A DNA stretch of 64,000 nucleotides from a virus (Duplodnaviria > Heunggongvirae > Uroviricota > Caudoviricetes), in IMG/VR virus record IMGVR_UViG_3300020718_000011, positions 1 to 64,000 of that record. One strand, written 5' to 3'. Below, piece by piece: positions 2,600 through 59,620 of this stretch; position 1 is the first letter of the stretch; each line of letters begins with the position of its first letter. The translations under genes were made by a program, and so were the position numbers. A model generated the notes under the pieces. The model made no database searches. It was not told the DNA's origin and saw nothing but the letters and a program-made list of their open reading frames with translations.

Positions 2600-3256
2600 A
2601 TGGAAGAATTTATTTTATTAGACGACTTTACAAAAGATATATTTGGCATCAAAGAATTCGGGGTAATTATTGACATTAGTGATGATACCGATTCTATCAA
2701 TAAGGAAATGTATAATGCTTTCCTGGGGTTTTTGGATAAGCATGATATTGGTTATAATCTCATTAGACAATCCAATGACGGGTTATATCAATTTAAGATT
2801 ACCAACTATAATGCGGAGGAACTAAGAAAGCTACTTCCAAAAATTGTCAATGATGAGGATGAAAAGGGAGTAGATGATATTACCATTCATGGGGAATGTG
2901 CTATTGTTCCTTCCGGAACAGGGGCTCTAGGAAAAAATCAAATAGATGCCTCAATAAAGTATAATATTTATTGGAATAGGGAAACTGGATTTTATAAAAT
3001 GTGGGATTGGCGTTGGGATCTTGAAAGCTCTATTTATAGTGGTAATGGTTCTTCTGGATCATCAGGAAGTGCTGGTACTTCTGGAAGTTCTGGTACTTCT
3101 GGGATGTATAGAGTCAATACAAGTACTTCCGGGACAGGAACTGTTAGCGGATCTAGCGGAACTAGCGGAACTAGCGGATTTTTGCTAAAAGATTTAGCGT
3201 TATTAGAAAGGTTAGTTAAGTTTATTGAAAAACCAATTACTTTCTTAAATGGATAA
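2600..3256 (+). CDS. hypothetical protein with Gly/Ser-rich linker
   Basis: 218 aa; low-complexity GSSGSSGSAGTSGSSGTSG...SGTSGTSG tract encoded by nucleotide tandem repeats around 3040-3190. Confidence 0.5.
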   Translation: MEEFILLDDFTKDIFGIKEFGVIIDISDDTDSINKEMYNAFLGFLDKHDIGYNLIRQSNDGLYQFKITNYNAEELRKLLPKIVNDEDEKGVDDITIHGECAIVPSGTGALGKNQIDASIKYNIYWNRETGFYKMWDWRWDLESSIYSGNGSSGSSGSAGTSGSSGTSGMYRVNTSTSGTGTVSGSSGTSGTSGFLLKDLALLERLVKFIEKPITFLNG

Positions 3257-3701
3257 TAAGATAAATGGTAAAAAAACAATATCTACAAATAGTGGATTAA
3301 TTGTAAAATCTAGTTATTTTACTGCTGCTCTTTTTGGATTAGAATATAGGGTTCATATTTCCTTTAATTATTGTGAAGTTGGGCCTAGGTATTTTGAAGA
3401 AGGATGGAGAGATGGTATTAATGCTATTGTTTACCAACAAATAGTTGATCTAATAGATACGCATTGTGATAGGCCTGAATTAACAGGACTTAATTCAACT
3501 ACATTTCGTTATAGCTTTATTGGGATTACTCCCGAAACATTAATTAATAAGTTGCCTTTAGTTGAACGTCAAAGCGACATCAATATAAAAGTAGTAGAAG
3601 CATTTCAAGGGGATCTATGGATTTATTGGAGACCTGATATTGGATTATATCGTAGCAAAACAAGAAGACATATTTGGGGCAACAATAGAGATTTTATATG
3701 A
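3249..3701 (+). CDS. hypothetical protein, tandem paralog A
   Basis: Shares FTAALFGLEYRVHI... and IYWRPDIGLYRSKT motifs with the next ORF. Confidence 0.5.
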   Translation: MDNKINGKKTISTNSGLIVKSSYFTAALFGLEYRVHISFNYCEVGPRYFEEGWRDGINAIVYQQIVDLIDTHCDRPELTGLNSTTFRYSFIGITPETLINKLPLVERQSDINIKVVEAFQGDLWIYWRPDIGLYRSKTRRHIWGNNRDFI

Positions 3702-8655: not shown

Positions 8656-9255
8656 CTAGTTAATCCTATTACTCTTTTTAATATTATCAATTTTCCATAA
8701 TGGTTGAAAATTACTATAATGATTTAATTTAATAAGATCCTCTTCATTTAAAGCCGAACTAATAGGTATTATATGATCATATTCCCATTCACCATAATTA
8801 TTCCATGACATCCCATCCACGAATTTATTCTCTATCCATATTTTAAATTCTTTATACGAACAACCCAAGATTCTATATGTTTTTGATGTTTTTGTATATC
8901 CTTGATTTTTAATAGCATTTCTTATAAGATTTCTAATGTTACTACTCATTTTAAAAATAGGATCAATATTTCGTTTTTCGTTCACATAATTGTTTCTCTT
9001 TTTTCTAATTTTTGTTAGCTCTATTTCAGATTTTTTAATTGAACTTTTATCTTTAATTTTTACTTTTTCTCTATAATAATTTTTTGCATATTCGTTTAGT
9101 TTTTTTCTGTTATTTTTACTATATTGATTAGAATAATTTTTCCTTCTCCCTAACTCTTCGGGGTCCTTATGAGTTTCTAAATATAATTTAGTTCTATTAG
9201 AGATAGTTTCCTTGTTCTTTTTATAATATTCCTTATAATATTCTTTCCTATCCAT
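8656..9255 (-). CDS. HNH homing endonuclease
   Basis: C-terminal ILGCSY..W..DHIIPISSA...NHYSNFQPLW..DN..KSN His-Me finger motifs; Lys/Tyr-rich YYKEYYKKNKE N-terminal repeats. Confidence 0.8.
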   Translation of the reverse strand: MDRKEYYKEYYKKNKETISNRTKLYLETHKDPEELGRRKNYSNQYSKNNRKKLNEYAKNYYREKVKIKDKSSIKKSEIELTKIRKKRNNYVNEKRNIDPIFKMSSNIRNLIRNAIKNQGYTKTSKTYRILGCSYKEFKIWIENKFVDGMSWNNYGEWEYDHIIPISSALNEEDLIKLNHYSNFQPLWKIDNIKKSNRIN

Positions 9256-9868: not shown

Positions 9869-10344
9869 CTATAGACAAATTCTTCGAAACCTTAGACAAA
9901 TTCTACACAAAAGTAGGACATACTCCTTGTTGTATAAAATTCTATGCACAACAGAGTACCTTCAGCTTTGAGGTTCATGACAGCACACAAACTTGTTATA
10001 CTGATGAATCCTTAATCTATGAATCTCAGGTTTATTGGTGGAGATCACCAAAGGATATGGACAAGATTATTAAGAATATCAGGTCTTTCTGTAACGACTT
10101 TAAAGAGAAAGCAAAGAAATGGCCAGTTTGGGTTGGAGCATTACCAGATAATGCTCCAGATGGGCCAGTACATTATAATCCATTACCTACCAAAAGGGCT
10201 GAAGTTTATACCGGAGAGAATGCAATTCCCTTCTTCTATACGGAAAAGGCTTGCCAAAACTGGTGTGATAATCATACCTACCAGGGCGAATGGCTATGGG
10301 AAGGAAAAGATCATAGACACAAAAAACCGAAGGTAAAAAAATGA
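9865..10344 (+). CDS. hypothetical protein
   Basis: 159 aa, Cys/Trp-rich with basic C-terminus; ATGA overlap upstream. Confidence 0.45.
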   Translation: MTIDKFFETLDKFYTKVGHTPCCIKFYAQQSTFSFEVHDSTQTCYTDESLIYESQVYWWRSPKDMDKIIKNIRSFCNDFKEKAKKWPVWVGALPDNAPDGPVHYNPLPTKRAEVYTGENAIPFFYTEKACQNWCDNHTYQGEWLWEGKDHRHKKPKVKK

Positions 10345-39004: not shown

Positions 39005-39048
39005 GCACTTTTGGTCGATTTTAAGCATGAAATTTTAAATCCAAAATT
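39005..39048. repeat. intergenic element copy 2
   Basis: gcacttttggtcgattttaagcatgaaattttaaatccaaaatt; inverted ends ttttgg/ccaaaa. Confidence 0.55.
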
Positions 39049-39141
39049 ATTTTTAATATAAATCATTAGGGAGAAGAAATAGGATTGCTAACAAGCAACT
39101 ATATTAATTTAGTTATTTTTTAGCTATCTAGGTTTGGCCAA

Positions 39142-41346: not shown

Positions 41347-42314
41347 TATAGGTATAGGCGTTTAGATCGCAATGCTGTAGCTTTGCCTTATGGAGAGGCG
41401 AATTACCTTTGCAGGTGTGAATTCAATTATGTTCCACCAACGGTTTAAAACAGACGACGACTGCCTGGAATATTTATCTGGCGTTAAATGGGAGAATGGA
41501 TTTAGCTGTAAGAGATGCAACAATGATAAATATTGTGCTGGTAAAAAGCCGTTCAACAGACGATGTACCAAATGTCGGTATGAGGAAAGTCCAACATCGG
41601 GTACTATGTTTGACAAGGTTAAATTTTCAATTTTAAAGGCATTTCACATTGCTTTTAAAATAAGTACAAAGAAGAAAGGGATGTCCAGTTTAGAGTTAAG
41701 CAATGAGTTTGACCTGCGCCAAAAGACTTGTTGGGAGTTTAAATGGAAACTACAGCAGGCCATGGCAAGCAGTCTAAAATACCCTTTAACAGGAACGGTA
41801 CACGTAGATGAGTGTTACATTGGGGGCCCCGAAGAGCAAAAAAGAGGTAGAAGTAAAGGCGATAAAAAACTCATTGTTTTAGTATTAGAGATTATTGATG
41901 GTGGTGTAGGCAGAGCATATGCTGAAGTGATAGAACATTCATCGGCTAAAGAATTGGGCGCATTTTTGAGGAAATATGTATCCAAGGATGCAAAGATTAT
42001 ATCGGATGAATGGCTCGGTTATACTCCCTTAAAAACAGAATTTACGAAATTGGAGCAAGTGGCATCGGATGACGGAAAAAACTTTAAAGACATACACATT
42101 CATATAATGAATATAAAAAGCTGGTTAAGAGGTATTCACCACCATTGCAGTAAGGAACGTATTCAAGGATACCTGGATGAATATCACTTTAGATATAACA
42201 GAAGACAAAAAATGGGGGTAATCTTTGATTCCCTTATAAAACGAATGGTCAAAAATGATCCAATACGCTTGTTATCAAAGGATTGATATTGCGACCTAAG
42301 TGCCTATACCTATA
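41347..42314 (+). mobile_element. IS1595-family insertion sequence (about 970 bp)
   Basis: Single transposase ORF flanked by 13-bp terminal inverted repeats TATAGGTATAGGC (41347-41359) / GCCTATACCTATA (42302-42314), and ACTA immediately outside both ends (candidate 4-bp target duplication). Confidence 0.65.
41390..42286 (+). CDS. IS1595-family transposase
   Basis: N-terminal zinc ribbon (CKRC...CTKC) and the hallmark VDECYIGGPEE (DEtyIGG) of ISXO2-like/IS1595 DDE transposases. Confidence 0.75.
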   Translation: MERRITFAGVNSIMFHQRFKTDDDCLEYLSGVKWENGFSCKRCNNDKYCAGKKPFNRRCTKCRYEESPTSGTMFDKVKFSILKAFHIAFKISTKKKGMSSLELSNEFDLRQKTCWEFKWKLQQAMASSLKYPLTGTVHVDECYIGGPEEQKRGRSKGDKKLIVLVLEIIDGGVGRAYAEVIEHSSAKELGAFLRKYVSKDAKIISDEWLGYTPLKTEFTKLEQVASDDGKNFKDIHIHIMNIKSWLRGIHHHCSKERIQGYLDEYHFRYNRRQKMGVIFDSLIKRMVKNDPIRLLSKD

Positions 42315-48508: not shown

Positions 48509-49366
48509 ATGGGTATCAATTTAAAAAAAGAGCTCGACCAAAGTAAGGAGCAGCAATTAGAACGTTCCGTTAATGAGAGGGATTCTGTCCAGGAGGTAAA
48601 ACTGCTATTGGCAGGAGAGGACCAGGAAGATAAAAGGATCCTTCGCAATCTCGGTAGCAATTCCACCGTAATGCAGCTGGAAAACTTCAAGGGTGATAAC
48701 ATTCAATGGGAGAACCTGGAAAAGGAATATGGCCAAGTCTTTACTATAGACCAAATTAAACAATTGGCAGTAGACTACAGACTCCGCTTTCTTAATTCCA
48801 ATCACTTTGTTGGCGATATGGATCGAGAGGTAACCGCCAAGATAAAAGAATTCTCTAAGGCTACTGGAGTAAAATTGGACGATTCCACCTTACGCTATAA
48901 TTTCTATATCCTTTCTGTACCCAGCAGTTTTTCATTGACTACTGTTCGGGCAACCCGCTTTGAAGAGTGGAAGGAAAGGAGAAGGTTAGCAGCACTTGAT
49001 CCAGTACTCTTCTATAAAATAGACGATACGCACTATCGCCTGATTCACCAATGGGGCAAAGAGTTCACTACCTGGAGAAGAATTCTCGGGTATCGCTGGA
49101 GAAATCATAATACTTACCGAACTACAAACTTCTTTTTCCTGGTTCCAACATTCTCATTATTGATGGCTTTGATATTCCCTGGTGCTATTTGGAATAACCC
49201 GATATTAACCCCGTTCTGGATTCTTTTGGCGTCTGCCTTTTCTGCCTGGGTATTGAATATCAAGGTAATTAAGGAAAATGGGCATTTTTCTGAAGGTACT
49301 ACTGAATATCACGAAAATTTCTTCACCCCAACAAATTGGAACAGCACAGAAAAGCTGGTAGGATAA
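48509..49366 (+). CDS. membrane protein
   Basis: Track start 48467 lies inside promoter-like DNA; Met MGINLKK chosen; C-terminal half has 2-3 TM helices. Confidence 0.45.
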   Translation: MGINLKKELDQSKEQQLERSVNERDSVQEVKLLLAGEDQEDKRILRNLGSNSTVMQLENFKGDNIQWENLEKEYGQVFTIDQIKQLAVDYRLRFLNSNHFVGDMDREVTAKIKEFSKATGVKLDDSTLRYNFYILSVPSSFSLTTVRATRFEEWKERRRLAALDPVLFYKIDDTHYRLIHQWGKEFTTWRRILGYRWRNHNTYRTTNFFFLVPTFSLLMALIFPGAIWNNPILTPFWILLASAFSAWVLNIKVIKENGHFSEGTTEYHENFFTPTNWNSTEKLVG

Positions 49367-49367
49367 T

Positions 49368-49736
49368 ATGAAAAAGATAATCATACCATTAACATTTACT
49401 GGGCTTCTTTTAATCTCTGGAAGCTTCTTATACCTGTCGGAATTAAGGCACTTTAAAAATCAGCCGCAGTTCACATTAGATACCAAGGAAAGGCCTCTTT
49501 CTTTGGCAGAGGTTAAATTGACCAGCGTCAAGATACAACCAAATGTTAACTATTCCATTAAATATGCAATAGAAACAATGGTAATTACTACTGGATGGAA
49601 AATACATTCTCATTCCGATACGACATCAATCTGGATGCAGGCCGAATCTGAAACCGATGGTAATGGTAAAGCACTTACGCAGCCATCACTTCCAAAGGGT
49701 GGCAATTTTAATTGGGGAACATTAAACTTTAGATAA
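49368..49736 (+). CDS. putative secreted protein
   Basis: MKKIIIPLTFTGLLLISGSFLYL signal-anchor. Confidence 0.45.
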   Translation: MKKIIIPLTFTGLLLISGSFLYLSELRHFKNQPQFTLDTKERPLSLAEVKLTSVKIQPNVNYSIKYAIETMVITTGWKIHSHSDTTSIWMQAESETDGNGKALTQPSLPKGGNFNWGTLNFR

Positions 49737-50087
49737 TTGGATGCTATTGTAGTAGAAAATGAAATACCAAAGAGTATTGGGTATTTCTTGGACCAAAGAT
49801 TGGGGACAGAACCAGAATTATCTGATTGGAAGGTTGTTTTATATTCTAGAGTATCTCCGGAGAGAGCTGCATATGATCCTAACTACATAACGATCCATTT
49901 TAAATATATTGGTTTAAAATACCAACGTGTTCATGATGTGGATTTTCTGGCTGCTAAAATGGCATTACTTAGATTGTTTAATGCTGACCTTATCTGGTTT
50001 CAGATTAGTGAAACTAATGAGCATAGAGATTTCTGGGCTATCATTCGAGATATTGACCATTCTAAATCTTGGACTAGGTTTAAATAA
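49737..50087 (+). CDS. hypothetical protein
   Basis: 116-aa ORF. Confidence 0.45.
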   Translation: MDAIVVENEIPKSIGYFLDQRLGTEPELSDWKVVLYSRVSPERAAYDPNYITIHFKYIGLKYQRVHDVDFLAAKMALLRLFNADLIWFQISETNEHRDFWAIIRDIDHSKSWTRFK

Positions 50088-50092
50088 TTGCT

Positions 50093-50446
50093 ATGGTAAA
50101 TGAATTAGTAAAACATAAAACCCTATCAATGGGTATAGGATGTATAGCAAAGGTATACAAGAAACACTATACTGTTAATTGGGGACTTGATTCTCATTCT
50201 AAGGTTCTCCAAAAGGACGTAGAACTAATAGATACATCTCTTTGTCCTACTGTTAAGTTTAGCGATTATAAGAACAGGATCCTAATGGCAGATCCAGTAA
50301 CCAAAAATCTCAATGAAGTTATCCTCGGTAATGTTGTACAACGCTTCGTTGGTATTGGTTGGATTAATAGAAAGGTAGTAGACGAGAAAGACCTCAAAAA
50401 AATACCTAGAGTAGTAGCAGATGAATTATGGACACGGTTTAAATAG
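50093..50446 (+). CDS. hypothetical protein
   Basis: 117 aa; last gene before the 730-bp non-coding region. Confidence 0.45.
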   Translation: MVNELVKHKTLSMGIGCIAKVYKKHYTVNWGLDSHSKVLQKDVELIDTSLCPTVKFSDYKNRILMADPVTKNLNEVILGNVVQRFVGIGWINRKVVDEKDLKKIPRVVADELWTRFK

Positions 50447-50520
50447 CCCAGTATTCCCCAACCACATGACCCCCACCTAGTATACACACCCATCCCCCCG
50501 GGAGACCCCCTGCGTGTCTA
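50447..50520. repeat. C-tract-rich island (G-quadruplex potential on minus strand)
   Basis: cccagtattccccaaccacatgacccccacctagtatacacacccatccccccgggagaccccctgcg: six C-runs of 3-6 in an otherwise AT-rich genome. Confidence 0.5.
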
Positions 50521-50571
50521 TCTATAGTAAATAATTAAACCTCGAATTATTCTCCCCTAAATACTTAAAAC

Positions 50572-50603
50572 TTCCGAACCAAGAAATATTACTTGGTTCG
50601 GAA
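50572..50603. repeat. 12-bp perfect inverted repeat (hairpin)
   Basis: TTCCGAACCAAG-aaatatta-CTTGGTTCGGAA in the 730-bp non-coding region. Confidence 0.7.
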
Positions 50604-51074
50604 TAAATATGTGGATAAAATAACCAAAAGTGTTAGAACCTACAAAGACCGGAGTTAAGAAAAGTATATCACAATCTACAAGGATGGTAAAAATTACATA
50701 TAATGGAATTTCTATGTTAGCAGTAGCAATTAGTTTTGTTAGTGGAGCATATTATATGGAAAAATATTATCTACTACAAGATGGTAATATAGGTTTAGAG
50801 TATGGGGATTTTGATTCTATAGTTGGCATGAATCCATCCGAATTATTTAATAGTAAAATGTAATCTATTATAGATTTACCTTCATTATAATAGATAGAAA
50901 TTAATTAGGATTATCCCATAATCCCACCTCCGGTTTATGGATCCGGAAAAAGGAATCCCCTTCAATAGTTTGCGGGAAAACATTAAAGGTTTGTTAATGA
51001 CATTTGCATTCAGGTTTACAAAAAAAATGCAAACTCGCCCGAAGCACCCCCGCGGAATTTTCGGAGAACATATT

Positions 51075-51155
51075 TAACAAAGATTTAACAATGGAATTTT
51101 TTTTATTCAAGAACTATTATTATCGCGGGCGTGTGTGCGGGCTTCTTATTATTAT
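51075..51155 (+). repeat. promoter-like element with the -7 box replaced by a GC-rich block
   Basis: agatttaacaatggaatttttttattcaagaactattattatcgcgggcgtgtgtgcgggc; upstream half is class-A promoter, downstream half is a GC island related to the 56491 and 56615 blocks. Confidence 0.5.
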
Positions 51156-51177
51156 AAAAATTCAAGGAGTTTCTTAA

Positions 51178-51795
51178 CTATATAATTTTATTACTCTTTT
51201 TTAAATTATCTAATTTCCATAATGGTTGTAGATTTGTATAATGGTTTAATTTAATAACCTCTTCGAATGTTGTCGCACTATCTAATGGTATTATGTGGTC
51301 TATATGCCATTTTCCATAATTTTCTATAGTCATTCCATCTACAAATTTAGATTTAATATACTCTACGAAAAATTCAGGTGTACAACCTAATATATCAAAT
51401 GTCTTACTTTCTTTAACTAATCCTTTCCTCTTAAAAGAACCATATACTAAGTTTCTAGTATTGGCTTTAAATTTATACAATGGGTCAATTTTCATTCTGT
51501 TCTTACGGTACTCTTTCATTTCTTCCTTTACTTCAGAATATGGCTTTCTCTTTTTTGGTTTAATCTTATAGTATTCGTTTTGCTTTTTATTAAGTTCTTT
51601 TCTCTTTTCTGGTTCCTTTCTATTTTCTAGTATACTCCCTTTATTTTTTAGATAGTAACTATTAGACTCTTCCTTTATCTTATCCTCATTCTTTTTGTAA
51701 TACTCCTTTTTATATTTCCTAATTTTCTCTTTATTAAGTTCTCTATATTTTTTCTGGTACTCACTCATATTTTGAGTCTTATTGGGTTCTTTCAT
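51178..51795 (-). CDS. HNH homing endonuclease
   Basis: DPLYKF...ILGCTPE..W..DHIIPLDSA..NHYTNLQPLW..DN..KSN; KEYYKKNEDKIKEE N-terminal repeats; ATATATA box upstream. Confidence 0.8.
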   Translation of the reverse strand: MKEPNKTQNMSEYQKKYRELNKEKIRKYKKEYYKKNEDKIKEESNSYYLKNKGSILENRKEPEKRKELNKKQNEYYKIKPKKRKPYSEVKEEMKEYRKNRMKIDPLYKFKANTRNLVYGSFKRKGLVKESKTFDILGCTPEFFVEYIKSKFVDGMTIENYGKWHIDHIIPLDSATTFEEVIKLNHYTNLQPLWKLDNLKKSNKII

Positions 51796-51820
51796 GTCTA
51801 TTATATTTTATCTATATATC

Positions 51821-51830
51821 TGAGTTATTG
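51821..51830 (-). promoter_or_regulatory. class-B ATATATA box
   Basis: Minus strand reads gatatatagataaaatataatagacATG before HNH 51795. Confidence 0.3.
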
Positions 51831-51891
51831 CCTAATTTTTAGAAAACTTATTACGCATAACGAAAACGCACACAATTAAATTCCTTAACAA

Positions 51892-51950
51892 ATCTTTAAC
51901 TTAAAAAATTTTTTTATCTTGAAAACATGCTTTATATTTGCTTTATCAAT
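51892..51950 (+). promoter_or_regulatory. class-A phage promoter
   Basis: aatctttaacttaaaaaatttttttatcttgaaaacatgctttatatttgctttatca; drives 51984; this sequence block is duplicated at 56850. Confidence 0.55.
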
Positions 51951-51983
51951 TTAATTATTAACAATTAAACAAGTTTAAAAAAA

Positions 51984-52526
51984 ATGGAAAAGACAGCATC
52001 GGCCAACACGGCCACAGACACAAAAACAACCGGAGCACAGGGTGCAGAGGTTGTAGTAACAGAGCAGCCTGCTGCAAGCAGCGTTAGCATCGTTCCAACA
52101 GCGGTAGCCGTAGAGGTACCAAAAGTTCGCCTGTTCTGGCAGAAAGCGTGCGGATCTATGAAGGATTCTACCCTTACGCCAATTAAAGACGACGAAGTAT
52201 TTGTAAGGACCTCTCACCAGGTAGGCGTTATCCCTGCCGGCGCACCGGATGGCACTGCACCAGTTGCAGAGACCGTTTACAGCATGAAGCGCGGTAAAAG
52301 GATCTACTACACACCTTCTTCTTTCATTACCGATGCACAGCGTCTCGCTGCTGATACCGCGACTGACCTCAAGGTAAAAGAGAAAGAGGCAGCAGCCAAG
52401 GTAAAGGCTGATGAAAAAGCCAAGAAAGAGCAGGCGAAAAAGGATGCGGCAGCAGCCGGTCCAAAAGTAGTAGCTGGCCCAACAGTGGTAGCGGCTCCGG
52501 CAACAATTACCGAAAAATCTCTCTAA
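51984..52526 (+). CDS. Ala/Lys/Thr-rich protein, paralog A of a duplicated pair
   Basis: Core VPKVRLFWQKACGS..TLTPIKDDEVFVRT.H.VGVIPAGA..GTAPV..VYSMKRGKRIYYTPSSFITDAQR with AKVKADEKAKKEQAKKDAAAAGPKVVAG tail; GC and codon usage above background; own promoter and bidirectional terminator. Confidence 0.55.
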   Translation: MEKTASANTATDTKTTGAQGAEVVVTEQPAASSVSIVPTAVAVEVPKVRLFWQKACGSMKDSTLTPIKDDEVFVRTSHQVGVIPAGAPDGTAPVAETVYSMKRGKRIYYTPSSFITDAQRLAADTATDLKVKEKEAAAKVKADEKAKKEQAKKDAAAAGPKVVAGPTVVAAPATITEKSL

Positions 52527-52543
52527 AGGGGTACATCGGAATT

Positions 52544-52582
52544 AAAAGAAAAACATCAGCTTAGTGCTGGTGTTTTTCTTTT
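52544..52582. terminator. bidirectional intrinsic terminator between convergent genes
   Basis: aaaagaaaaacatcagc-ttagt-gctggtgtttttctttt: about 17-bp stem with A-rich 5' arm and U-rich 3' arm, between 51984-52526(+) and 52561-53394(-). Confidence 0.6.
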
Positions 52583-53394
52583 GTCCAATTTAATTTATTT
52601 CGTTTGCTTTGATTATCAGGAGCCCATAATGGCTGGAAATTTGTATAATGGTTCAATCTTATAATTTCTTTTTGGGTAGTAGCGGAACTAGATGGTATAA
52701 TATGATCAATTTGCCATAGATTTCTATTATCCCACGACATTCCTTCCCAAAATTGAGATTCTATATGAATTTTAAATTGTTCTATGGTACATCCTAATAT
52801 TTCTTGGGAACGTGAATTTTTACTAAATCCATTATTTTTTAGGGATTGCCTTATTAGGTTACTTGTCTCTTTAGAAAACTTAAATAAGGGATCTCTTTTT
52901 AATCTCTCTTTTATATAATTACCATTTCTTTTAGCGATGGCTTTTTTATTTTCTATATAATATTGTTTTTTATCAATGGAGACTTTATTCTTGTTTTTTA
53001 GATATTTCTCTTTATCCTTTTCTATCCTTTTCTCCTTATGTAATTGATATGATTTTTTGTTATTAGATAATATTTTCTCTTTATTTAATTGATAGAGCTC
53101 TCTTCTACGTGCTAATTTTTCTTCCCTATTTGCTTGATAGAGTTCTTTTTTACGAGTTAATTCCTTATCCTTATTTAGTTTATAATATTCTCTTTTATTG
53201 GAATTTATTTCATCCCTTTTTAATTGTCTATTTTCTCTCCTTCTTTTTAATTTCTCTCCCTTGTTTAATTTATAAAGCTCATTTCTATTAGATAATTTTT
53301 CCTCGTGTGTCATATAGTATTTTATATTAACTATATATTTAAGTTTCAACCGGGGTATGCTTGTGTTTATCCAATCCATCTTTGATCGATTCAT
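52561..53394 (-). CDS. HNH homing endonuclease
   Basis: DPLFKF..ILGCTIE..W..DHIIPSSSA..NHYTNFQPLW..DN..KRN; long Lys/Glu/Tyr repeat N-terminus; likely true start MTHEEK (about 53313), which is preceded by an ATATATA box. Confidence 0.8.
   Translation of the reverse strand: MNRSKMDWINTSIPRLKLKYIVNIKYYMTHEEKLSNRNELYKLNKGEKLKRRRENRQLKRDEINSNKREYYKLNKDKELTRKKELYQANREEKLARRRELYQLNKEKILSNNKKSYQLHKEKRIEKDKEKYLKNKNKVSIDKKQYYIENKKAIAKRNGNYIKERLKRDPLFKFSKETSNLIRQSLKNNGFSKNSRSQEILGCTIEQFKIHIESQFWEGMSWDNRNLWQIDHIIPSSSATTQKEIIRLNHYTNFQPLWAPDNQSKRNKLNWTKEKHQH
53329..53340 (-). promoter_or_regulatory. class-B ATATATA box
   Basis: Minus strand reads aaatatatagttaatataaaatactatATG before the probable internal start of HNH 52561-53394. 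Confidence 0.3.
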
Positions 53395-53468
53395 TGGTCG
53401 AGGGAGCGCCCCGCAATTCAGTAAGAAATTTAATAAAATCAGTAAAAGTGGAAAGATATATAGGGTAT

Positions 53469-53822
53469 ATGAAAACTATAAAAGAATTTGATAACTATAC
53501 TCCTCTTAATGAGGATGAAACTACCGGTGGCTCTTTTGACGTAGCTAGGTTTAGTATTGCTGTTAAAAGGTGTGCAGCAGCATTGGAAGAACATGATATA
53601 GGTAAATTTGTTAGTATCTACAGCAGCCAGATAAAGAGTGTAATTAATAGTCCAGAAGCTCGTCAGAGAACGGATTTAATTAAACAATTGGCAGAAAGTA
53701 TCGAGATAGCAAAGGAAGGAATGAGCCCAGAAGAAAAGAGAGAGGTATTTGTTCTTATTATGCCTAAACTAACAGAGCAAATAGATAAAGATCCTGAGTT
53801 AAGGGCTAAGTACGAAATATAG
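53469..53822 (+). CDS. hypothetical protein
   Basis: Track ORF 53361-53822 overlaps the HNH gene start; trimmed to Met MKTIKEFDNY. Confidence 0.4.
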   Translation: MKTIKEFDNYTPLNEDETTGGSFDVARFSIAVKRCAAALEEHDIGKFVSIYSSQIKSVINSPEARQRTDLIKQLAESIEIAKEGMSPEEKREVFVLIMPKLTEQIDKDPELRAKYEI

Positions 53823-53861
53823 GTTAGAGATCCCCCTGGAGGCCCCTTGTGTAAGAGAAGA

Positions 53862-54317
53862 TTAATGTATTCTTTGGAAGTCTGGTTCTGGCCAGACTTT
53901 TTTATTGTAGGCTTCCATTAGAATTTTCACTACGTGTTCAAATATAAATGGGATTTCTCCCATTTCAAAGGTTCTTATAGTAGAAGGTACCAAAGGATCT
54001 AATTCCGTTGCGTTGTATTCCTGTCCTTGTAAAACATTAAAAAACCAATTAGATTTTTCTATATCATAATATAGTATACATAAAACACCTACATCTTTAT
54101 AGATATCCTCTTCTGTGGAGTTCCCATATACATATGTGGATTGTGTCCAAAGAGAATTTGGATTAGGTAAAATATAATCAACCCTAGTTGTTATATGAAC
54201 AGCAGGCATTACCCACTTAGTCATAGCTGCTTGTGCATTCCTATAATGAGATAGCATAAAAAGAATGAGGATAATAATAAACACATTAGTCCCCCCTATG
54301 GGCCCCTTGTGTTCCAT
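53862..54317 (-). CDS. hypothetical membrane-anchored protein flanked by direct repeats
   Basis: 151 aa; N-terminal TM helix; the CDS is bracketed by near-identical 22-bp direct repeats containing GGCCCCTTGTGT. Confidence 0.45.
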   Translation of the reverse strand: MEHKGPIGGTNVFIIILILFMLSHYRNAQAAMTKWVMPAVHITTRVDYILPNPNSLWTQSTYVYGNSTEEDIYKDVGVLCILYYDIEKSNWFFNVLQGQEYNATELDPLVPSTIRTFEMGEIPFIFEHVVKILMEAYNKKVWPEPDFQRIH

Positions 54318-54921: not shown

Positions 54922-55734
54922 ATGAAAGGTTATATTTATAAAATAACAAGCCCATCTGGTAAAGTTTATATAGGTCAAACTAAAAATATTTCTAATAGGA
55001 AGAATAGTTATAAAGGATTTAATACTCCTAGCACTTCTATAAAAGCTCAAATTAAATTATATAATAGTCTTAGTAAATATGGATGGGATAATCATAAATT
55101 TGAAGTTATAGATGAATGTCAATTTTGTGGTATTAATAATTGGCTATTGGATTCTTTAGAAATTCATTGGATAAATGAATATGATAGTTTTAATAATGGA
55201 TTAAACTGTACTAAAGGTGGATCTGGCCAGTGCGGACATAAACATTCAATAGAAGCTAAACTAAAAATGGGTAACTCAATGAAGGGAAGGGTTATGTCAG
55301 AGCAAACTAAACAAAAAATAAGTAATTCAAACAAAGGAATACTTATTCACACAAAAAGAAAACCTCTTTCTGATGAGACCAAACAAAGAATAAGTAATTC
55401 AAATAAAGGAAGAACTCATGCTAAATACGAGAGAACCCCTCATTCAGAGGAAACTAAACAAAAGATGAGTAATTCTCAAAAGGGTAGGGTACCATCAGAA
55501 GAAACTAAAAAGAAAATAAGTAATTCTAAAAAAGGAACGGTATGTTCAGAAGAAACTAAACAAAAGATGAGTAATTCTCAAAAGGGTAGGGTTACATCAG
55601 AAGAAACTAAACAAAAAATAAGTAGTTCACACAAAGGAAAGAAACAAATCCCGCATTCAGAAGAAACTAAAAAGAAAATAAGTAATTCTCTTAAGTCAAA
55701 GAAAACTAATTTGAATAATCTACTTCTATTCTAA
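54922..55734 (+). CDS. GIY-YIG homing endonuclease with NUMOD3-like repeats
   Basis: MKGYIYKITSPSGKVYIGQT (GIY-YIG), KYGWDNHKFEVI, NGLNCTKGG; about 7 repeated SEETKQKISNS(N/Q)KG(R) modules; ATATATA box upstream. Confidence 0.8.
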   Translation: MKGYIYKITSPSGKVYIGQTKNISNRKNSYKGFNTPSTSIKAQIKLYNSLSKYGWDNHKFEVIDECQFCGINNWLLDSLEIHWINEYDSFNNGLNCTKGGSGQCGHKHSIEAKLKMGNSMKGRVMSEQTKQKISNSNKGILIHTKRKPLSDETKQRISNSNKGRTHAKYERTPHSEETKQKMSNSQKGRVPSEETKKKISNSKKGTVCSEETKQKMSNSQKGRVTSEETKQKISSSHKGKKQIPHSEETKKKISNSLKSKKTNLNNLLLF

Positions 55735-56344: not shown

Positions 56345-56443
56345 TTTTAAGAAAGAATTTAATATAACGTAAATATACATAAAATATTTTAAGGTTAAAA
56401 ATCAATAGCTGTAATATTTTGTTAAAGAAATTATTTATACACA

Positions 56444-56625
56444 TTAACAACTCCCTAACAATTTATTCAAAAACTATTGTTTATTATTCGCGCTCGTGCG
56501 CCCACCCGCGCGAGGAGAATTTCGCAGAGGCACCCCCGCGCATGATATTACAATGAGTTTAAAAGCTTTAACAACTCCCTAACAATTTATTCAAAAACTA
56601 TTGTTTATTATTCACACGAGCGTAC
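56444..56625. repeat. two 47-bp perfect direct repeats, each abutting a GC-rich quasi-palindrome
   Basis: TTAACAACTCCCTAACAATTTATTCAAAAACTATTGTTTATTATTC at 56444-56490 and 56568-56614; followed by gcgctcgtgcgcccacccgcgcg and, inverted, cacgagcgtacgcgcacgc. Confidence 0.7.
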
Positions 56626-56701
56626 GCGCACGCACTTTTTTATATTTATATCAAAAATTCAAAGAGTTTACACAAAGAGTTGGGTCTCTACTCTTTTAAT
56701 T

Positions 56702-56775
56702 TTCTTTAACATTACCTTAACAACATTTATTTTTTTATTTTGAAACGATTCTTTAAATTTGCTTCAACAATTTAA
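56702..56775 (+). promoter_or_regulatory. class-A phage promoter (upstream copy of a tandem pair)
   Basis: ttctttaacattaccttaacaacatttatttttttattttgaaacgattctttaaatttgcttcaaca; TAAATTTG box. Confidence 0.45.
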
Positions 56776-56849
56776 TTATTAACAATACAAAAAATAATTA
56801 AAATGGAGTATAAAAAAACGAAACGAAACTCTATTAAATTCATTAACAA

Positions 56850-56910
56850 ATCTTTAACTTTAAAAATTTTTTTATCTTAAAACGATTTCTTAAATTTGCT
56901 TTATCAATTT
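56850..56910 (+). promoter_or_regulatory. class-A phage promoter
   Basis: atctttaactttaaaaatttttttatcttaaaacgatttcttaaatttgctttatca; drives 56940. Confidence 0.55.
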
Positions 56911-56939
56911 AATTATTAATAATCAAAAATCAAAAAAAA

Positions 56940-57653
56940 ATGAGCAACAACAAACACAGTAAAGGACGCGGCGCAGCCGGTCACACAACAGGCAGCGAGC
57001 ACACTTCTGCTGAACACACTGACACTGCAATCGACACTGCAATCGACACTGCAGAACACACTGACACCGCAACGGAAGAAACCAAAACGGAAACTACCGA
57101 GGCCAGCGCAGAACACACCGACCCCGCAACAGAAACTGCAGAACACACAGAGCCAGCACCAGAAGTGAAAGTTACTGAAACACCTGCTGCTTCTACCCTG
57201 TCTATCGTGCCAACCGCAGTGGCCAAGGAAGTACCAAAAGTTCGTCTCTTCTGGCAGAAAGCGTGCGGATCAATAAAAGAAAGCACTCTCACCCCTATCA
57301 AGGATGATGAAGTATTCGTTCGCACTGCCCACACCGTAGGTGTCATCCCTGCAGGTGCAGCAGAAGGTACTGCACCTGTTATCGAAATCGTTTACAGCAT
57401 GAAGCGCGGTAAAAGGATCTACTACACACCTTCTTCTTTCATTACCGATGCACAGCGCGTTGCAGCCGACCTGGCCACTAATACGAAGAACGCAGAAAAG
57501 GAAACCGCAGCCAAAGTAAAGGCTGATGAAAAACTGAAAAAAGAGCAGGCGAAAAAGGACGCAGCCGCAGCCGGTCCTAAGGTAGTAGCGGGAGCAACAA
57601 TAGTTGCCGCACCAGCAGCAGCCACAGAAACCGCTACCGAAGAAGTAAAATAA
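56940..57653 (+). CDS. Ala/Lys/Thr-rich protein, paralog B
   Basis: Same conserved core and AKVKADEKLKKEQAKKDAAAAGPKVVAG tail as 51984-52526, plus N-terminal AEHTDTAIDTAIDTAEHTDTA repeats; tandem promoters upstream; terminator downstream. Confidence 0.55.
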   Translation: MSNNKHSKGRGAAGHTTGSEHTSAEHTDTAIDTAIDTAEHTDTATEETKTETTEASAEHTDPATETAEHTEPAPEVKVTETPAASTLSIVPTAVAKEVPKVRLFWQKACGSIKESTLTPIKDDEVFVRTAHTVGVIPAGAAEGTAPVIEIVYSMKRGKRIYYTPSSFITDAQRVAADLATNTKNAEKETAAKVKADEKLKKEQAKKDAAAAGPKVVAGATIVAAPAAATETATEEVK

Positions 57654-57812: not shown

Positions 57813-58400
57813 CTACAAAATTTTATTACTTTTCCATATGTTATCAGAAGCCCATAATGGTTGAAAATTACTGTAATGGTTTAATTTAATTATCTCATCC
57901 TCGTTGGTTGCACTATCTATTGGTATGATATGGTCAAAATGCCATTTACCATAATTAGACCAATCCATTCCTTCCGTAAATTTATTCTCAATCCATATTT
58001 TAAATTCCTCATAAGAGCAGCCAAGTATTTGGTAAGTAGAGGATTTTTTCGTATAACCATTTCTACGAATACTTTGTGCTATGGTTCTTTTAATCTTTTG
58101 GTGTAATTTATAAAGTGGATCTACCTTCATTCTTTCTCTAAGACGTAATTTCCTTCTACTACTTCTCTCTTCTTTTGTTAGTGGTATTTTAGGTTCCTTT
58201 TTTGGAAGTTTTTCGTAGCATCTCTTTTTGGCAGCTACGCATTTCTCTTTATTGTTTTTATAATACTCTTTTTGGTATTCCTTCTTACTTTCCTTATTTC
58301 TTTCATACCATTCTGCCATTCCAGTCCTTTTGTGCATAATTTTTATTTTTATATATCTAATGTTTACGTCTCGAAAACCAGGAATTCTGTGTTTATACAC
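57813..58400 (-). CDS. HNH homing endonuclease
   Basis: DPLYKL..ILGCSYEEFKIW..DHIIPIDSA..NHYSNFQPLW..DN..KSN; true start probably an internal Met (MHKRTG/MAEWYER), which is preceded by an ATATATA box. Confidence 0.75.
   Translation of the reverse strand: MYKHRIPGFRDVNIRYIKIKIMHKRTGMAEWYERNKESKKEYQKEYYKNNKEKCVAAKKRCYEKLPKKEPKIPLTKEERSSRRKLRLRERMKVDPLYKLHQKIKRTIAQSIRRNGYTKKSSTYQILGCSYEEFKIWIENKFTEGMDWSNYGKWHFDHIIPIDSATNEDEIIKLNHYSNFQPLWASDNIWKSNKIL
58349..58360 (-). promoter_or_regulatory. class-B ATATATA box
   Basis: Minus strand reads agatatataaaaataaaaattATG before the internal start of HNH 57813-58400. Confidence 0.3.
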
Positions 58401-58464: not shown

Positions 58465-58661
58465 TTTAATAATAATTATTTAAGCGTACCTAAATTGTTT
58501 GACTATGATAAGGAATAAAGGTTCTCCATAAGTAGTAACTTATTTATTATATTATATTTAGATTATGTCCGAAGACCGAATAAGTCCAGAGTAGGAAAAG
58601 ATTAATTTAGTTTGAGAATGGCAGGATAGAATTAGTTACTATTCTGCCATTTTTGTTTTTT
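58465..58661 (+). ncRNA. candidate about 190-nt non-coding transcript (promoter to terminator, no ORF)
   Basis: Class-A promoter 58404-58461 followed by only tiny ORFs (under 12 codons) and the strong terminator at 58617-58661. Confidence 0.3.
58617..58661 (+). terminator. plus-strand intrinsic terminator
   Basis: tggcaggatag-aattagtta-ctattctgcca: 11-bp stem (one G.U), then TTTTTGTTTTTT; overlaps the 3' end of minus-strand GIY-YIG gene. Confidence 0.6.
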
Positions 58662-59330
58662 AGAGTGAGCTATCTTTAATGAATTACTCATCTTTTGTTT
58701 GGCTTCAGGAGTATTAAATTTTTCCTTCATCATAAGTTTTAATTTTAACTTATGCTCATCAGATAATGGTTTTCTTTTAGCCCTATTATTACCTTCCCTA
58801 ATTTTTTGTTTAGTCTCTTCAGATATAGGATTTCTAGTTTTACCCTTTAATGAGATGGATATTTTCTTCTTAGTTTCATCCGTAACAAATTTACGTTTAT
58901 CTATTTTTGGTTGATCTATTTTAGCCTTAGCTATTTTTGGTTTACTATCTCTATCTTTTATTAATCCCAATAAATTTCTATTTTTATTTCCTTTTAATGA
59001 ATTGGATATTTTTATTTTCATCTCTTCGGATATACTAGTAGTTCCACCACCTCCTTCCGTACAATTTAATCCATCCTTAAATGAGTTAAATTTAGAAATC
59101 CAGTATATCTCTCTTTCAAAAAGTATAGGGTCCTTATTATTATCCAATGTGAGTTCTTCTATTACTTCTTTAGTATGATTCTCCCATCCATATTTATTTA
59201 CGGACCAATATAATTTATGTTGTTTCCTATCAACTCCATATTTATATCTTTCGTTTATACTATTTTTAGTTGTACACCCTATATAAATACGTCCGGTTGG
59301 GCTAGTAATTTTATAGATAAGTCCTTTCAT
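58632..59330 (-). CDS. GIY-YIG homing endonuclease with NUMOD3-like repeats
   Basis: MKGLIYKITSPTGRIYIGCT, KYGWENHTKEVIEEL, DGLNCTEGGGG; repeated SEEMKIKISNSLKG / TDETKKKISISLKG / SEETKQKIREGN modules. Confidence 0.8.
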   Translation of the reverse strand: MKGLIYKITSPTGRIYIGCTTKNSINERYKYGVDRKQHKLYWSVNKYGWENHTKEVIEELTLDNNKDPILFEREIYWISKFNSFKDGLNCTEGGGGTTSISEEMKIKISNSLKGNKNRNLLGLIKDRDSKPKIAKAKIDQPKIDKRKFVTDETKKKISISLKGKTRNPISEETKQKIREGNNRAKRKPLSDEHKLKLKLMMKEKFNTPEAKQKMSNSLKIAHSKKQKWQNSN

Positions 59331-59470: not shown

Positions 59471-59520
59471 ATCACTTTGGTATATCACTTTGGTCGATTT
59501 TAAGGCATATTTAAAGCGAC
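59471..59520. repeat. intergenic element copy 3
   Basis: tcactttggtatatcactttggtcgattttaaggcatatttaaagcgaccag; arms tttggtcg/cgaccag. Confidence 0.55.
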
Positions 59521-59620
59521 CAGAAGTAATTATAATATCATCAATAATGCCCCCGGGGTGGTGCTGAAATTTTGACACCAAAATAAAGACCTTCTGTGGT
59601 CAGGTAAAAATACTTTATAA

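Follow-up and report, generated by a model that had tools for sequence, protein, structure and literature searches.

Does a structure-rich gap in the genome of a huge phage mark an origin of replication, a packaging site, or something more ordinary? The question is raised by positions 50447-51177 of the window, by which we mean the whole 64,000-nt (64-kb) stretch of DNA that was analysed, itself part of a 473,921-bp contig of a freshwater huge phage whose genome is about 474 kb long. A first-pass annotation had described this region as 730 bp of non-coding DNA, rich in C-runs with G-quadruplex potential, hairpins and GC-rich promoter-like sequence, and had proposed it as a candidate origin, packaging site or regulatory hub. 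The flanks are as it described them: the plus-strand ORF upstream ends in a TAG stop whose last base is 50446, and an HNH-type ORF occupies 51178-51795 on the minus strand. About one third of the supposedly non-coding region is, in fact, a real gene. We read the region, with a probability of about 0.62, as a mosaic that combines a gene boundary with regulatory elements, situated where the ~474-kb genome is hypervariable and rich in ORFans; two rearrangements, the HNH insertion and the insertion of two genes on its left, account for part of its large size.

The locus and its relatives

The comparisons were made against four related genome fragments (L012, L013, L021 and L023), to which L020 was added for the small ORF discussed below; only three or four related genome types were recovered. 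A megablast search of 49000-53500 against a phage database gave no match, and scans of IMG/VR with the 117-aa protein on the left, the 180-aa protein on the right and the pattern of a dispersed motif that we call the C-box returned only chance matches to GC-rich actinophage coding sequence, the lineage not being recovered by these queries. Exact-protein look-ups led to contigs 100% identical over 50001-51900, which are hence uninformative on conservation. Pfam, PHROG and PDB held no match for the 180-aa, 237-aa, 77-aa and neighbouring proteins. The genes adjoining 50447-51177 are hypothetical ORFans without replication domains, and are neither replication nor terminase genes.

In L012 and L013 the gene order is a 299-aa gene, a 115-aa gene, a terminator, the C-box, a hairpin, the small ORF and a variant promoter-like module, continuing with a canonical promoter and a 179-aa gene, without the HNH gene. 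Comparisons of this kind show conservation, paralogy, the insertion and purifying selection directly; biochemical roles are throughout inferred from position and conservation.

A dispersed motif at gene boundaries

The element that most clearly recurs outside the region is the C-box, present in the window as follows.

50490-50518, plus strand: C-box copy 1, CCATCCCCCCGGGAGACCCCCTGCGTGTC, belonging to a GC-rich motif that is dispersed and has a partly palindromic core
53830-53852, plus strand: C-box copy 2, between convergent genes
54289-54311, plus strand: C-box copy 3, 5 nt past the stop of a minus-strand 87-aa gene

Searches with nhmmer and regular expressions found this motif of about 28 nt 3 times in the window and 12 times across five genome fragments, the chance expectation by shuffling being 0.045 per window. 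Its orientation is identical in 12 of 12 copies, whatever the strand of the genes around it, and for 8 of them a stop codon, on either strand, is no more than about 10 nt away; both regularities rest on roughly 4-7 independent sites, because many of the copies are orthologous or paralogous. The core of copy 1 is invariant at L012 11067 and L013 9808. Copy 2 lies 7 nt past the stop of the plus-strand gene and 10 nt past that of the minus-strand gene, and has an orthologue at L023 5075; copy 3 is 5' of M21, the residue at which the next minus-strand gene probably begins, and its orthologous or paralogous counterparts are found at L013 13168, L023 5522 and L021 698. What lies to the left of the copy 1 site varies: L012 and L013 have a 115-aa gene with a terminator, L023 has a 244-aa gene, and this phage has a 117-aa gene. 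Conserved motifs adjoin the points at which the 116-aa and 117-aa genes and the HNH gene were inserted.

Several more familiar identities were considered for the C-box. An RNA hairpin or intrinsic terminator was rejected for want of a U-tract, and a stable stem-loop is not formed because the arms of the palindrome are just 0-2 nt apart. Inspection by eye for a RegB-like GGAG cleavage site or an ECF-type promoter revealed features that are not common to all copies, and both were set aside. A small peptide encoded in the C-box region of the relatives, also sought by eye, showed no evident start codon, and the substitutions alone were not decisive. We infer that the C-box may be a DNA-level protein-binding or boundary element, a site where gene cassettes with no other relationship are joined.

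The C-rich island

Copy 1 of the C-box forms the right end of a C-rich island that begins directly after the upstream gene.

50447-50489, plus strand: left half of the C-rich island, not conserved, with runs CCC, CCCC and CCCCC

The C-runs of 3-6 nt noted in the first pass are real and located at 50447-50510. With 36 C against 10 G, the segment 50447-50524 is richer in C than any other of its length (78 nt) in the window (z = 5.8). It holds four runs of at least C4 within 75 nt; runs of at least G4 never exceed two per 75 nt. Only the right end of the island (50490-50518, the C-box) is conserved. The left half lies at the position of an intrinsic terminator in the relatives, where L012 and L013 carry GAGCCC..GGGCTC followed by a T-run and have no C-runs; by this comparison, the relatives' terminator has been lost here through rearrangement. 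Readthrough of the TAG at 50444 into an in-frame Pro-rich tail of 26 codons was also considered, and was rejected because TAG is an ordinary stop (10 of 68 long ORFs) and the orthologues stop at the same residue.

Rut sites of Rho-dependent terminators are C-rich, G-poor stretches of about 80 nt that are followed by a pause. The island could be such a site on the plus-strand transcript, replacing the intrinsic terminator of the relatives and using the 12-bp hairpin downstream for pausing. Its composition, unsurpassed for C in the window, resembles that of a rut site, as do its start directly at the operon's last stop, the absence of the terminator that relatives have at the equivalent spot and the strong hairpin 55 nt downstream. 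Yet this support is compositional in kind, and conservation does not extend over the entire C-rich stretch: its conserved part, the C-box, co-occurs with intrinsic terminators in the relatives and is also found 3' of minus-strand genes, where the RNA would be G-rich, while the left half could be mere rearrangement debris. Rho-dependent termination is therefore an unlikely account of the island, which we prefer to see as a gene boundary altered by rearrangement.

A position-conserved hairpin and a small gene

Downstream of the island the following features were found.

50572-50603: perfect 12-bp hairpin, TTCCGAACCAAG-N8-CTTGGTTCGGAA, just upstream of the small gene's ancestral start codon
50609-50623, plus strand: remnant of the small gene's ancestral start, ATG TGG ATA AAA TAA
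50630-50863, plus strand: gene for a conserved small protein (77 aa) that has the motif SG(A/P)YYMEKYYLLQD and a single hydrophobic segment
50864-51035: poorly conserved spacer with weak dyads
50908-50924: dyad GGATTAT-CCC-ATAATCC
50930-50946: CCGG dyad
51003-51033: TTTGCAT dyad

The perfect inverted repeat seen in the first pass is real and far beyond chance, none of 200 shuffles being equally good. It folds with -18.8 kcal/mol on the plus strand (z -5.7) and -21.1 kcal/mol on the minus strand (z -6.9). On the minus strand it is followed by the tail GTTTTAAG, and a terminator scan flags 50603-50572 on that strand with 12 pairs and the tail GTTTTAAGTA, in which the U-tract is short; the tail after the hairpin on the plus strand is, in the same scan, TAAATATG. 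Relatives have a hairpin at the same position that differs in sequence and is weaker (-7.8 and -7.7 kcal/mol on the minus strand against -5.1 and -5.3 on the plus strand), G-U pairing being possible on the minus strand, and their minus-strand hairpins are followed by UAUUUU. The strong form is unique to this genome, the relatives reaching only -5 to -8 kcal/mol. The hairpin may serve as the structure of a transcript end or of a 5' end, and the minus strand is the likelier of the two for it to act on.

The earlier view that no convincing ORF lies in the region does not hold for the 77-aa ORF. It has orthologues of 82 aa in L012 and 84 aa in L013 (identity 61% and 53%), and a distant 80-aa homologue occurs in another context in L020. 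Its dN/dS is 0.14, with 22, 12 and 39 differing sites at codon positions 1, 2 and 3, respectively. By this substitution pattern it is a genuine gene under purifying selection, and its product is probably a small membrane protein. The ATG remnant at 50609-50623 is in frame with the present GTG start at 50630 and aligns with the starts in L012 and L013 (ATGGATATGAAACAT...). A further 46-aa ORF, at 50937-51077, has no called gene at its position in L012 or L013. The weak CCGG and TTTGCAT dyads of the first pass are present, and no weight is placed on them.

Promoter repeats and a variant module

The right-hand part of the region belongs to a family of promoter-like repeats, the members of which relevant here are listed below.

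51036-51055, plus strand: GC-rich block CGCCCGAAGCACCCCCGCGG, whose paralogue, with the 11-mer GCACCCCCGCG in common, is the tail of module A (56522-56541)
51073-51123, plus strand: variant promoter-like module, with two TTAACA boxes, a T-tract, ATTCAAGAAC and then TATTATTAT, lacking the TAnnTTTG -7 box
51124-51143, plus strand: GC-rich tract CGCGGGCGTGTGTGCGGGC, with an 11-nt alternating purine/pyrimidine run at 51129-51139
51144-51177, plus strand: AT-rich module tail (..AAAAATTCAAGGAGTTTC), conserved with 56637-56669, the HNH insertion following directly
51859-51983, plus strand: canonical promoter and conserved 5' leader of the 180-aa gene, with TTAACA boxes, a T-tract and the -7 box TATATTTG (family D8)
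56440-56669, plus strand: modules A and B, a paralogous pair of the variant type within another large intergenic region

The canonical promoter repeat occurs in at least 14 copies in the window, directly 5' of start codons, and carries a TAnnTTTG box that lies 15-45 nt 5' of the start codon; Shine-Dalgarno sequences are not apparent in these copies. TAnnTTTG is the -7 box of sigma-A promoters in Flavobacteria, as established by the transcription start site map of Flavobacterium psychrophilum, and the canonical copies resemble Bacteroidota sigma-A promoters in carrying it (PMC9723704). The promoter type suggests a Bacteroidota host. The paired upstream TTAACA boxes, in contrast, are specific to this phage. 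The copy at 51859-51983 is, with its leader, near-invariant across five loci and precedes the 180-aa gene at 51984-52526.

The GC-rich promoter-like element of the first pass (51073-51143) is likewise borne out, as a member of this repeat family. The variant module (family D3) aligns with the canonical copies, and has its TTAACA boxes at 51074-79 and 51085-90, 11 nt apart. In contrast to Bacteroidota sigma-A promoters, this copy has no TTTG half of the box, nor have its orthologues and paralogues, and a GC-rich alternating purine/pyrimidine tract is there instead; TATTATCGCGGG occupies the slot that TAnnTTTG has in the canonical copies, and no ORF follows. Identity to L012 11672-11727 and L013 10411-10466 is 84%. 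Paralogues at 56446 and 56570 bring the occurrences in the window to three, and modules A and B are followed by two canonical promoter copies and then by the 237-aa paralogue. All GC-rich alternating runs of at least 10 nt in the window, L012, L013, L021 and L023 fall within the variant module, where they are 10-25 nt long, and the alternating tract is kept in the variant modules despite their differing sequences.

The variant module is conserved upstream of the 180-aa gene family in seven loci, and in all relatives it lies 50-140 nt upstream of that family's canonical promoter. Since it is tied to the promoter region of one gene family in all relatives, it points to gene regulation; it may be a second promoter for the 180-aa gene family, or a factor-binding site without promoter activity.

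An HNH-type gene inserted into a regulatory spacer

51178-51858, minus strand: free-standing putative HNH endonuclease gene (coding part 51178-51795) and its upstream sequence

This gene matches the endonuclease VII family PHROG 1035 (4.2e-13) and, weakly, Pfam HNH (E 0.0088; 16.6 bits, under the cut-off of 21.4). Three paralogues are present in the window (family D2), and GIY-YIG/NUMOD3 genes and several HNH paralogues occur within 10 kb. It is absent from L012, L013, L021, L023 and the window's paralogous 56-kb locus, and is an insertion because all relatives lack it; they have an uninterrupted intergenic spacer at the site. The insertion stands between the variant module on one side and the canonical promoter with the 180-aa gene on the other and, judging by this distribution, is recent. 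A group I intron around the gene was rejected, there being neither an Rfam match nor a split host gene.

Other readings of the region

It is improbable that the C-box and the module without a -7 box have DNA-level roles that go beyond ordinary transcription signals, the C-box as a polar boundary or recombination element, the module, with its conserved Z-DNA-prone tract, as a supercoil-sensing switch or R-loop-primed origin. If they did, the C-box would organise cassette exchange as a polar element.

Transcription-primed origins are known in phages, among them oriF and oriG of T4 and the primary origin of T7. An origin of this promoter-primed kind would treat the variant module as a promoter without a gene of its own, the GC-rich initial transcript of which would form a persistent RNA-DNA hybrid that primes replication, with the Z-DNA-prone purine/pyrimidine tract and the C/G-rich island aiding the opening of the DNA. 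The likeness to the T4 and T7 origins consists in a promoter-like element without its own ORF that adjoins DNA of unusual composition: the module has promoter-like upstream boxes with no ORF directly 3' and occurs three times in the window, and a conserved GC-rich tract stands just 3' of the TATTATTAT element. The window's only perfect DnaA box (TTATCCACA, 50610-50618) is 460 nt from the module, and a local minimum of the cumulative skew is near 51-53 kb. Unlike those origins, the module accompanies the promoter region of a single gene family in every relative, at the distance from the canonical promoter expected of a second promoter or regulatory site, and the plus strand of the tract is G-rich in this copy only and not in L012, L013 or L021. 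The search for iterons in 50300-51300 yielded only short two-copy repeats, and matches to the DnaA box with at most one mismatch are at chance level in the window (24 observed, 25.8 expected) and form no cluster. The GC skew, which could be followed over 64 of the ~474 kb, tracks gene orientation at the kb scale, and the cumulative skew has shallow local minima at 58-60 kb as well as at 51-53 kb; replication genes are not nearby. L012 and L013 lack the DnaA box, most of the C-runs and the hairpin in its strong form. We thus regard an origin at this site, as first proposed, as highly improbable, and the proposal of a packaging site found no support, the neighbours not being terminase genes.

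We give still less credence to a structured non-coding RNA (an sRNA, a riboswitch-like leader or an HNH-associated group I intron) in the non-coding parts. Several GC-rich segments do stand out from the AT-rich background, and the minimum free energy fold contains an imperfect long-range GC-rich inverted repeat that pairs 51036-51054 with 51124-51142; but neither L012 and L013 nor the 56-kb paralogue preserves this pairing, and the whole region folds no better than its shuffles (z -1.35 and -1.41). Rfam at gathering thresholds gave 0 matches in the window, and at E values up to 10 only microRNA-type noise, on the hairpin. The HNH gene is free-standing, with no interrupted host gene visible.

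As to the G-quadruplex proposed for the minus strand, the six C-runs of at least 3 nt are there, and G4Hunter finds its longest and strongest segment of the window at 50446-50518 (73 nt, mean -1.29, exceeding the cut-off of about 1.2). A canonical motif (four runs of at least G3 with loops of 1-7 or 1-12 nt) is, however, absent from both strands of the whole window by regular-expression search, a four-run structure in the island requiring loops of 10 and 14 nt. The four-run array lacks conservation: in the relatives just two C-runs (C6-7 and C4) are left, too few for an intramolecular quadruplex, and the other C-box copies have two or three. A functional minus-strand quadruplex regulating replication or transcription is the least credible of the readings considered.

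Discussion

The reading as a mosaic gene-boundary and regulatory region is close to one part of the original proposal, since the notion of a regulatory hub is broadly right: the C-box, the hairpin kept in position and the variant promoter module are recurring conserved cis-elements. In the arrangement that we envisage, the plus-strand operon would end at a site that has lost its terminator and retains a C-rich spacer ending in the conserved gene-boundary C-box. The hairpin would then act at a transcript end or 5' end, and the 77-aa gene would provide its probable small membrane protein. The distal variant module would keep the standard upstream boxes, its GC-rich purine/pyrimidine tract replacing the -7 box, and would have been parted from the canonical promoter and its gene by the recent insertion of the putative HNH homing endonuclease.

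A structure-rich "non-coding" gap thus seems to be made up of a small gene that had been overlooked, regulatory motifs that recur and an inserted homing-endonuclease gene, and to be ordinary rather than an origin. The promoter consensus, the dispersed C-box and the variant purine/pyrimidine module may aid the annotation of this uncultivated ~474-kb lineage, and the locus shows clearly how a regulatory spacer looks before and after an HNH insertion.

In large phages, free-standing homing endonucleases of the HNH family spread by intronless homing, as do genes of the T4 mob and seg type. The gene described here resembles these in being a putative HNH-family ORF with paralogues nearby and a patchy presence among close relatives, and in its insertion in an intergenic spacer beside a conserved gene; it differs in that its Pfam HNH match is under the curated cut-off, and it may have spread by homing.

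Another close parallel is given by the PeSL (promoter-early stem-loop) cassettes of T4-type phages, short repeated conserved motifs of intergenic spacers that sit at junctions of gene insertion, deletion and replacement in hyperplastic, ORFan-rich regions (Arbiol et al., 2010, PMC2839356; Comeau et al., 2014, PMC4122927). The sequences are unrelated, and the present phage has Bacteroidota-type promoters. PeSL cassettes combine a terminator stem-loop with an early promoter; the C-box is no such composite, the promoter repeats being separate elements, and a role in recombination is deduced here from few junctions. Like PeSL cassettes, nonetheless, the C-box and the promoter repeats are flanked by genes that vary between genomes, and they stand at the boundaries of insertion, deletion and replacement.

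Genomic setting and related loci

Within a hypervariable stretch of a huge phage genome, the region 50447-51177 forms a typical mosaic spacer, made up of one small gene that had been missed, two lineage-specific cis-motifs with putative roles, and a recent endonuclease insertion. What the first-pass annotation observed is largely confirmed, its coordinates and sequences for the region being correct. The features of the region and its right flank are:

50447-50524: C-rich island
50490-50518: C-box, the conserved right end of the island
50572-50603: 12-bp hairpin, more stable on the minus strand
50610-50618, minus strand: perfect DnaA box
50630: GTG start of the 77-aa ORF
51073-51123: variant module, a promoter-like repeat copy
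51178-51795, antisense: HNH gene
51859-51983: canonical promoter and leader
51984-52526: 180-aa gene

Exact-protein look-ups placed the window on a 473,921-bp metagenomic contig (ENA ERZ27271905 k141_26427), as well as on JGI and Logan contigs, so the window comes from a huge phage that is uncultivated. Its GC content is ~33%, it is crowded with short ORFs, mostly without a Pfam or PHROG match, and it holds no tRNAs or Rfam families; it also encodes RtcB, a GIY-YIG/NUMOD3 endonuclease, several HNH-type genes and an IS1595-family transposase (zinc ribbon plus DDE domain, 41390-42286) that is present in every identical contig. A 48-nt repeat, TTTGGTCGATTTTAAGCAT... (family D15), occurs in three copies (167-214, 39010-39057 and 59489-59536) at 67-85% identity.

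Contigs carrying identical flanking proteins are 100% identical to the window throughout the region and are therefore uninformative on conservation. Comparison of 49000-53500 with the deposited phage collection gave no match, and three IMG/VR queries recovered no relative. Homology search with the upstream 117-aa protein retrieved proteins of 84-85% identity on the contigs L012 and L013, which are related huge phages, and search with the 180-aa protein yielded two further loci: L021, which is the second, paralogous locus and comes from the metagenome that also yielded L012, and L023, a more distant relative. BLAST and alignments give an ancestral order of a 299-aa gene, a 115-aa gene (orthologue of the window's 122-aa gene), a strong intrinsic terminator, the C-box, the hairpin and the small ORF, followed by a ~230 nt spacer, the variant module, a ~50-80 nt spacer, the canonical promoter and a 179-aa gene. 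Left of the region, the 116-aa and 117-aa genes are insertions by comparison with L012 and L013, and they stem from a tandem array of ~115-aa paralogues. Such arrays of ~115-125-aa paralogous proteins lie at window 49368-50446, L012 6557-9096 and 10627-10974, and L023 316-3071; the window members end in a W..(F/L)(K/R) motif, and copy number and order vary among the related genomes. The array probably drives rearrangement left of the C-box.

The C-rich island

The island is a genuine outlier: among all 78-nt stretches of the window its C count is the maximum (36 C, with 10 G; z 5.8). It holds four runs of at least C4 within 75 nt, and runs of G4 or longer never number more than two in any 75-nt stretch. 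It is also the longest G4Hunter segment in the window (73 nt, mean -1.29), and a canonical four-run G4 motif is absent from the window with loops of up to 12 nt allowed. The suggested G-quadruplex role is not supported, and is unlikely because the relatives and the other C-box copies have only two or three runs.

Conservation is confined to the right end of the island, the C-box (CCATCCCCCC-GGG-GACCCC), which is invariant in L012 and L013. The left half (50447-50489) is without counterpart in these two contigs, which carry at its position a canonical terminator, GAGCCC..GGGCTC, and then a T-run. Rearrangement debris could account for the added C-richness of the left half; alternatively, going by its composition, this half could serve for Rho loading in place of the lost terminator.

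A conserved small gene and the hairpin upstream of it

The earlier statement that the region holds no convincing ORF is wrong. The 77-aa ORF aligns with ORFs of 82 aa in L012 (61% identity) and 84 aa in L013 (53%), sharing with both an invariant YYMEKYYLLQD core, and comparison with L012 gives a dN/dS of 0.14, with 22/12/39 differing sites at codon positions 1/2/3. By these measures of coding sequence it is a gene. Its protein has one hydrophobic segment, and the contig L020 has an 80-aa homologue in unrelated surroundings. Four codons on from the ancestral ATG, the window has an in-frame TAA (50609-50623), and conserved coding restarts at the GTG. The L013 orthologue appears locally frame-shifted at 10020-10050 and then back (RGPNNSGCNL vs GVPMIAVAIC), which could be an assembly error or a genuine indel pair.

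The 12-bp hairpin picked out in the first-pass annotation proved highly significant (-18.8 and -21.1 kcal/mol, z -5.7 and -6.9); the whole region folds no better than shuffled sequence (z -1.35 and -1.41), and the weaker dyads add nothing. The relatives have a hairpin of different sequence and far lower stability at the same place, 5-12 nt upstream of the small-ORF ATG. Stability is greater on the minus strand, where G-U pairs are possible, in all three genomes, a preference that with three sequences is only suggestive. A U-rich tail follows the hairpin on that strand, and a terminator scan flags it there. It may terminate transcription on the minus strand or in both directions, or may form a structure at the 5' end of the small-gene mRNA.

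Probable promoter repeats and the variant module

At least 14 copies of a ~80-nt repeat lie immediately upstream of start codons in the window, each laid out as two TTAACA boxes 11 nt apart, a T-tract, ATTCAAnAAC and then TAnnTTTG. Since Flavobacteria and Bacteroidota have TAnnTTTG as their sigma-A -7 box (PMC9723704), these repeats are very likely promoters, and the host probably belongs to the Bacteroidota. The GC-rich promoter-like element noted in the region is a copy of the repeat, at 51073-51123, with every upstream part kept. In the expected place of the -7 box stand TATTAT and then CGCGGGCGTGTGTGCGGGC; no ORF follows.

Judged by its recurrence, this variant module is not a decayed copy, since it is found twice more at 56446-56669 (65% identity over 146 nt, E 1e-6) and again in L012, L013, L021 and L023; in every case the canonical promoter and leader of the 180/237-aa gene family, themselves nearly invariant, lie downstream of it. 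In each sequence the variant module alone has GC-rich stretches of at least 10 nt (10-25 nt) in which purines and pyrimidines alternate; the runs differ in sequence, and the alternation itself, which is Z-DNA-prone, seems to be what is conserved. We infer a second promoter or factor-binding site regulating the 180/237-aa gene family. Since the module is invariably tied to the promoter region of one gene, an R-loop-primed origin is less likely.

Another large intergenic region (56381-56939, 559 nt) has a tandem series of four promoter-like modules, spaced at ~124-137 nt: first two variant (GC-rich, no -7 box), then two canonical, the first canonical copy being trailed only by a 12-codon mini-ORF, with the 237-aa paralogue next. 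The paralogous genes at 51984-52526 and 56940-57653 have 50-56% GC within a 33% GC genome, and their Ala/Lys/Thr-rich products, which contain internal tandem repeats (family D9, 56990-57165), match nothing in Pfam, PHROG or PDB. Both genes are flanked by HNH genes, and their promoter regions are the most elaborate in the window. Upstream of the canonical promoter of the 180-aa family, and downstream of the variant module or C-box, a small hairpin recurs, GAGTT..AACTC with ACTC(G)ACTC after it (L012 11775-11800; L021 ~3245-3275; L023 3875-3895 and 8200-8225; window 56667-56695); at the window's 51-kb locus its position is taken by the HNH insertion.

The endonuclease insertion

With 51178-51795 left out, the window aligns with four other loci from the variant module through the canonical promoter. 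The HNH ORF matches PHROG endonuclease VII (4e-13), has three paralogues in the window and is absent from this site in every relative compared (L012, L013, L021 and L023); on this comparison it is a recent, free-standing, antisense insertion, probably of homing type. It now parts the distal variant module from its gene, and a transcript from the module would cross the HNH gene antisense. Homing-endonuclease-like genes are very dense in the window (8656-9255, 51178-51795, 52561-53394, 54922-55734, 57813-58400 and 58632-59330), comprising four HNH paralogues whose repeated N-termini are rich in Lys, a GIY-YIG protein that has eight NUMOD3 repeats, and one other NUMOD3 protein; no size-matched genes for these six were called at the corresponding positions of the same four relatives.

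Discussion

The proposal of a replication origin is not supported: the region has no iterons and no DnaA-box cluster (the window has 24 matches with at most one mismatch against 25.8 expected, a chance frequency), GC skew in the window tracks gene strand, and no replication or terminase genes adjoin the region. The sole perfect DnaA-box 9-mer of the 64-kb window (TTATCCACA) lies across the small gene's remnant start codon and is absent from L012 and L013. A packaging site is likewise not supported. "Regulatory hub" is acceptable if taken modestly.

The C-box occurs three times in the window (50490, 53830 and 54289), against 0.045 per window predicted by shuffling, and a profile from six copies found more in L021 and L023, for a total of 12 in five genome fragments. 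Its core is a C4-5/G3-4 partial palindrome, with arms 0-2 nt apart and thus too tight for a stable hairpin, then CCCC-TT, and no U-tract lies downstream of the core. Orientation is identical in all copies, and a stop codon, on either strand, lies within ~10 nt in 8 of the 12. Copy 2 (53830) is between convergent genes and copy 3 (54289) after the stop of a minus-strand 87-aa gene. The L013 orthologue of the 151-aa ORF at 53862-54317 (minus strand) begins at the position of M21 (MLSHY); the called start is probably too far upstream, and with a start at M21 copy 3 would be intergenic, not coding. At the 50490 site the window has a 117-aa gene on the left, L012 and L013 have a 115-aa gene with its terminator, and L023 has a 244-aa gene and differs on the right side too. 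Because the C-box is dispersed, in one orientation, near stops and among variable neighbours, we infer an element that acts at gene boundaries at the level of DNA and may be bound by a protein. Its behaviour appears to resemble that of the PeSL junction motifs of T4-type phages (PMC2839356, PMC4122927).
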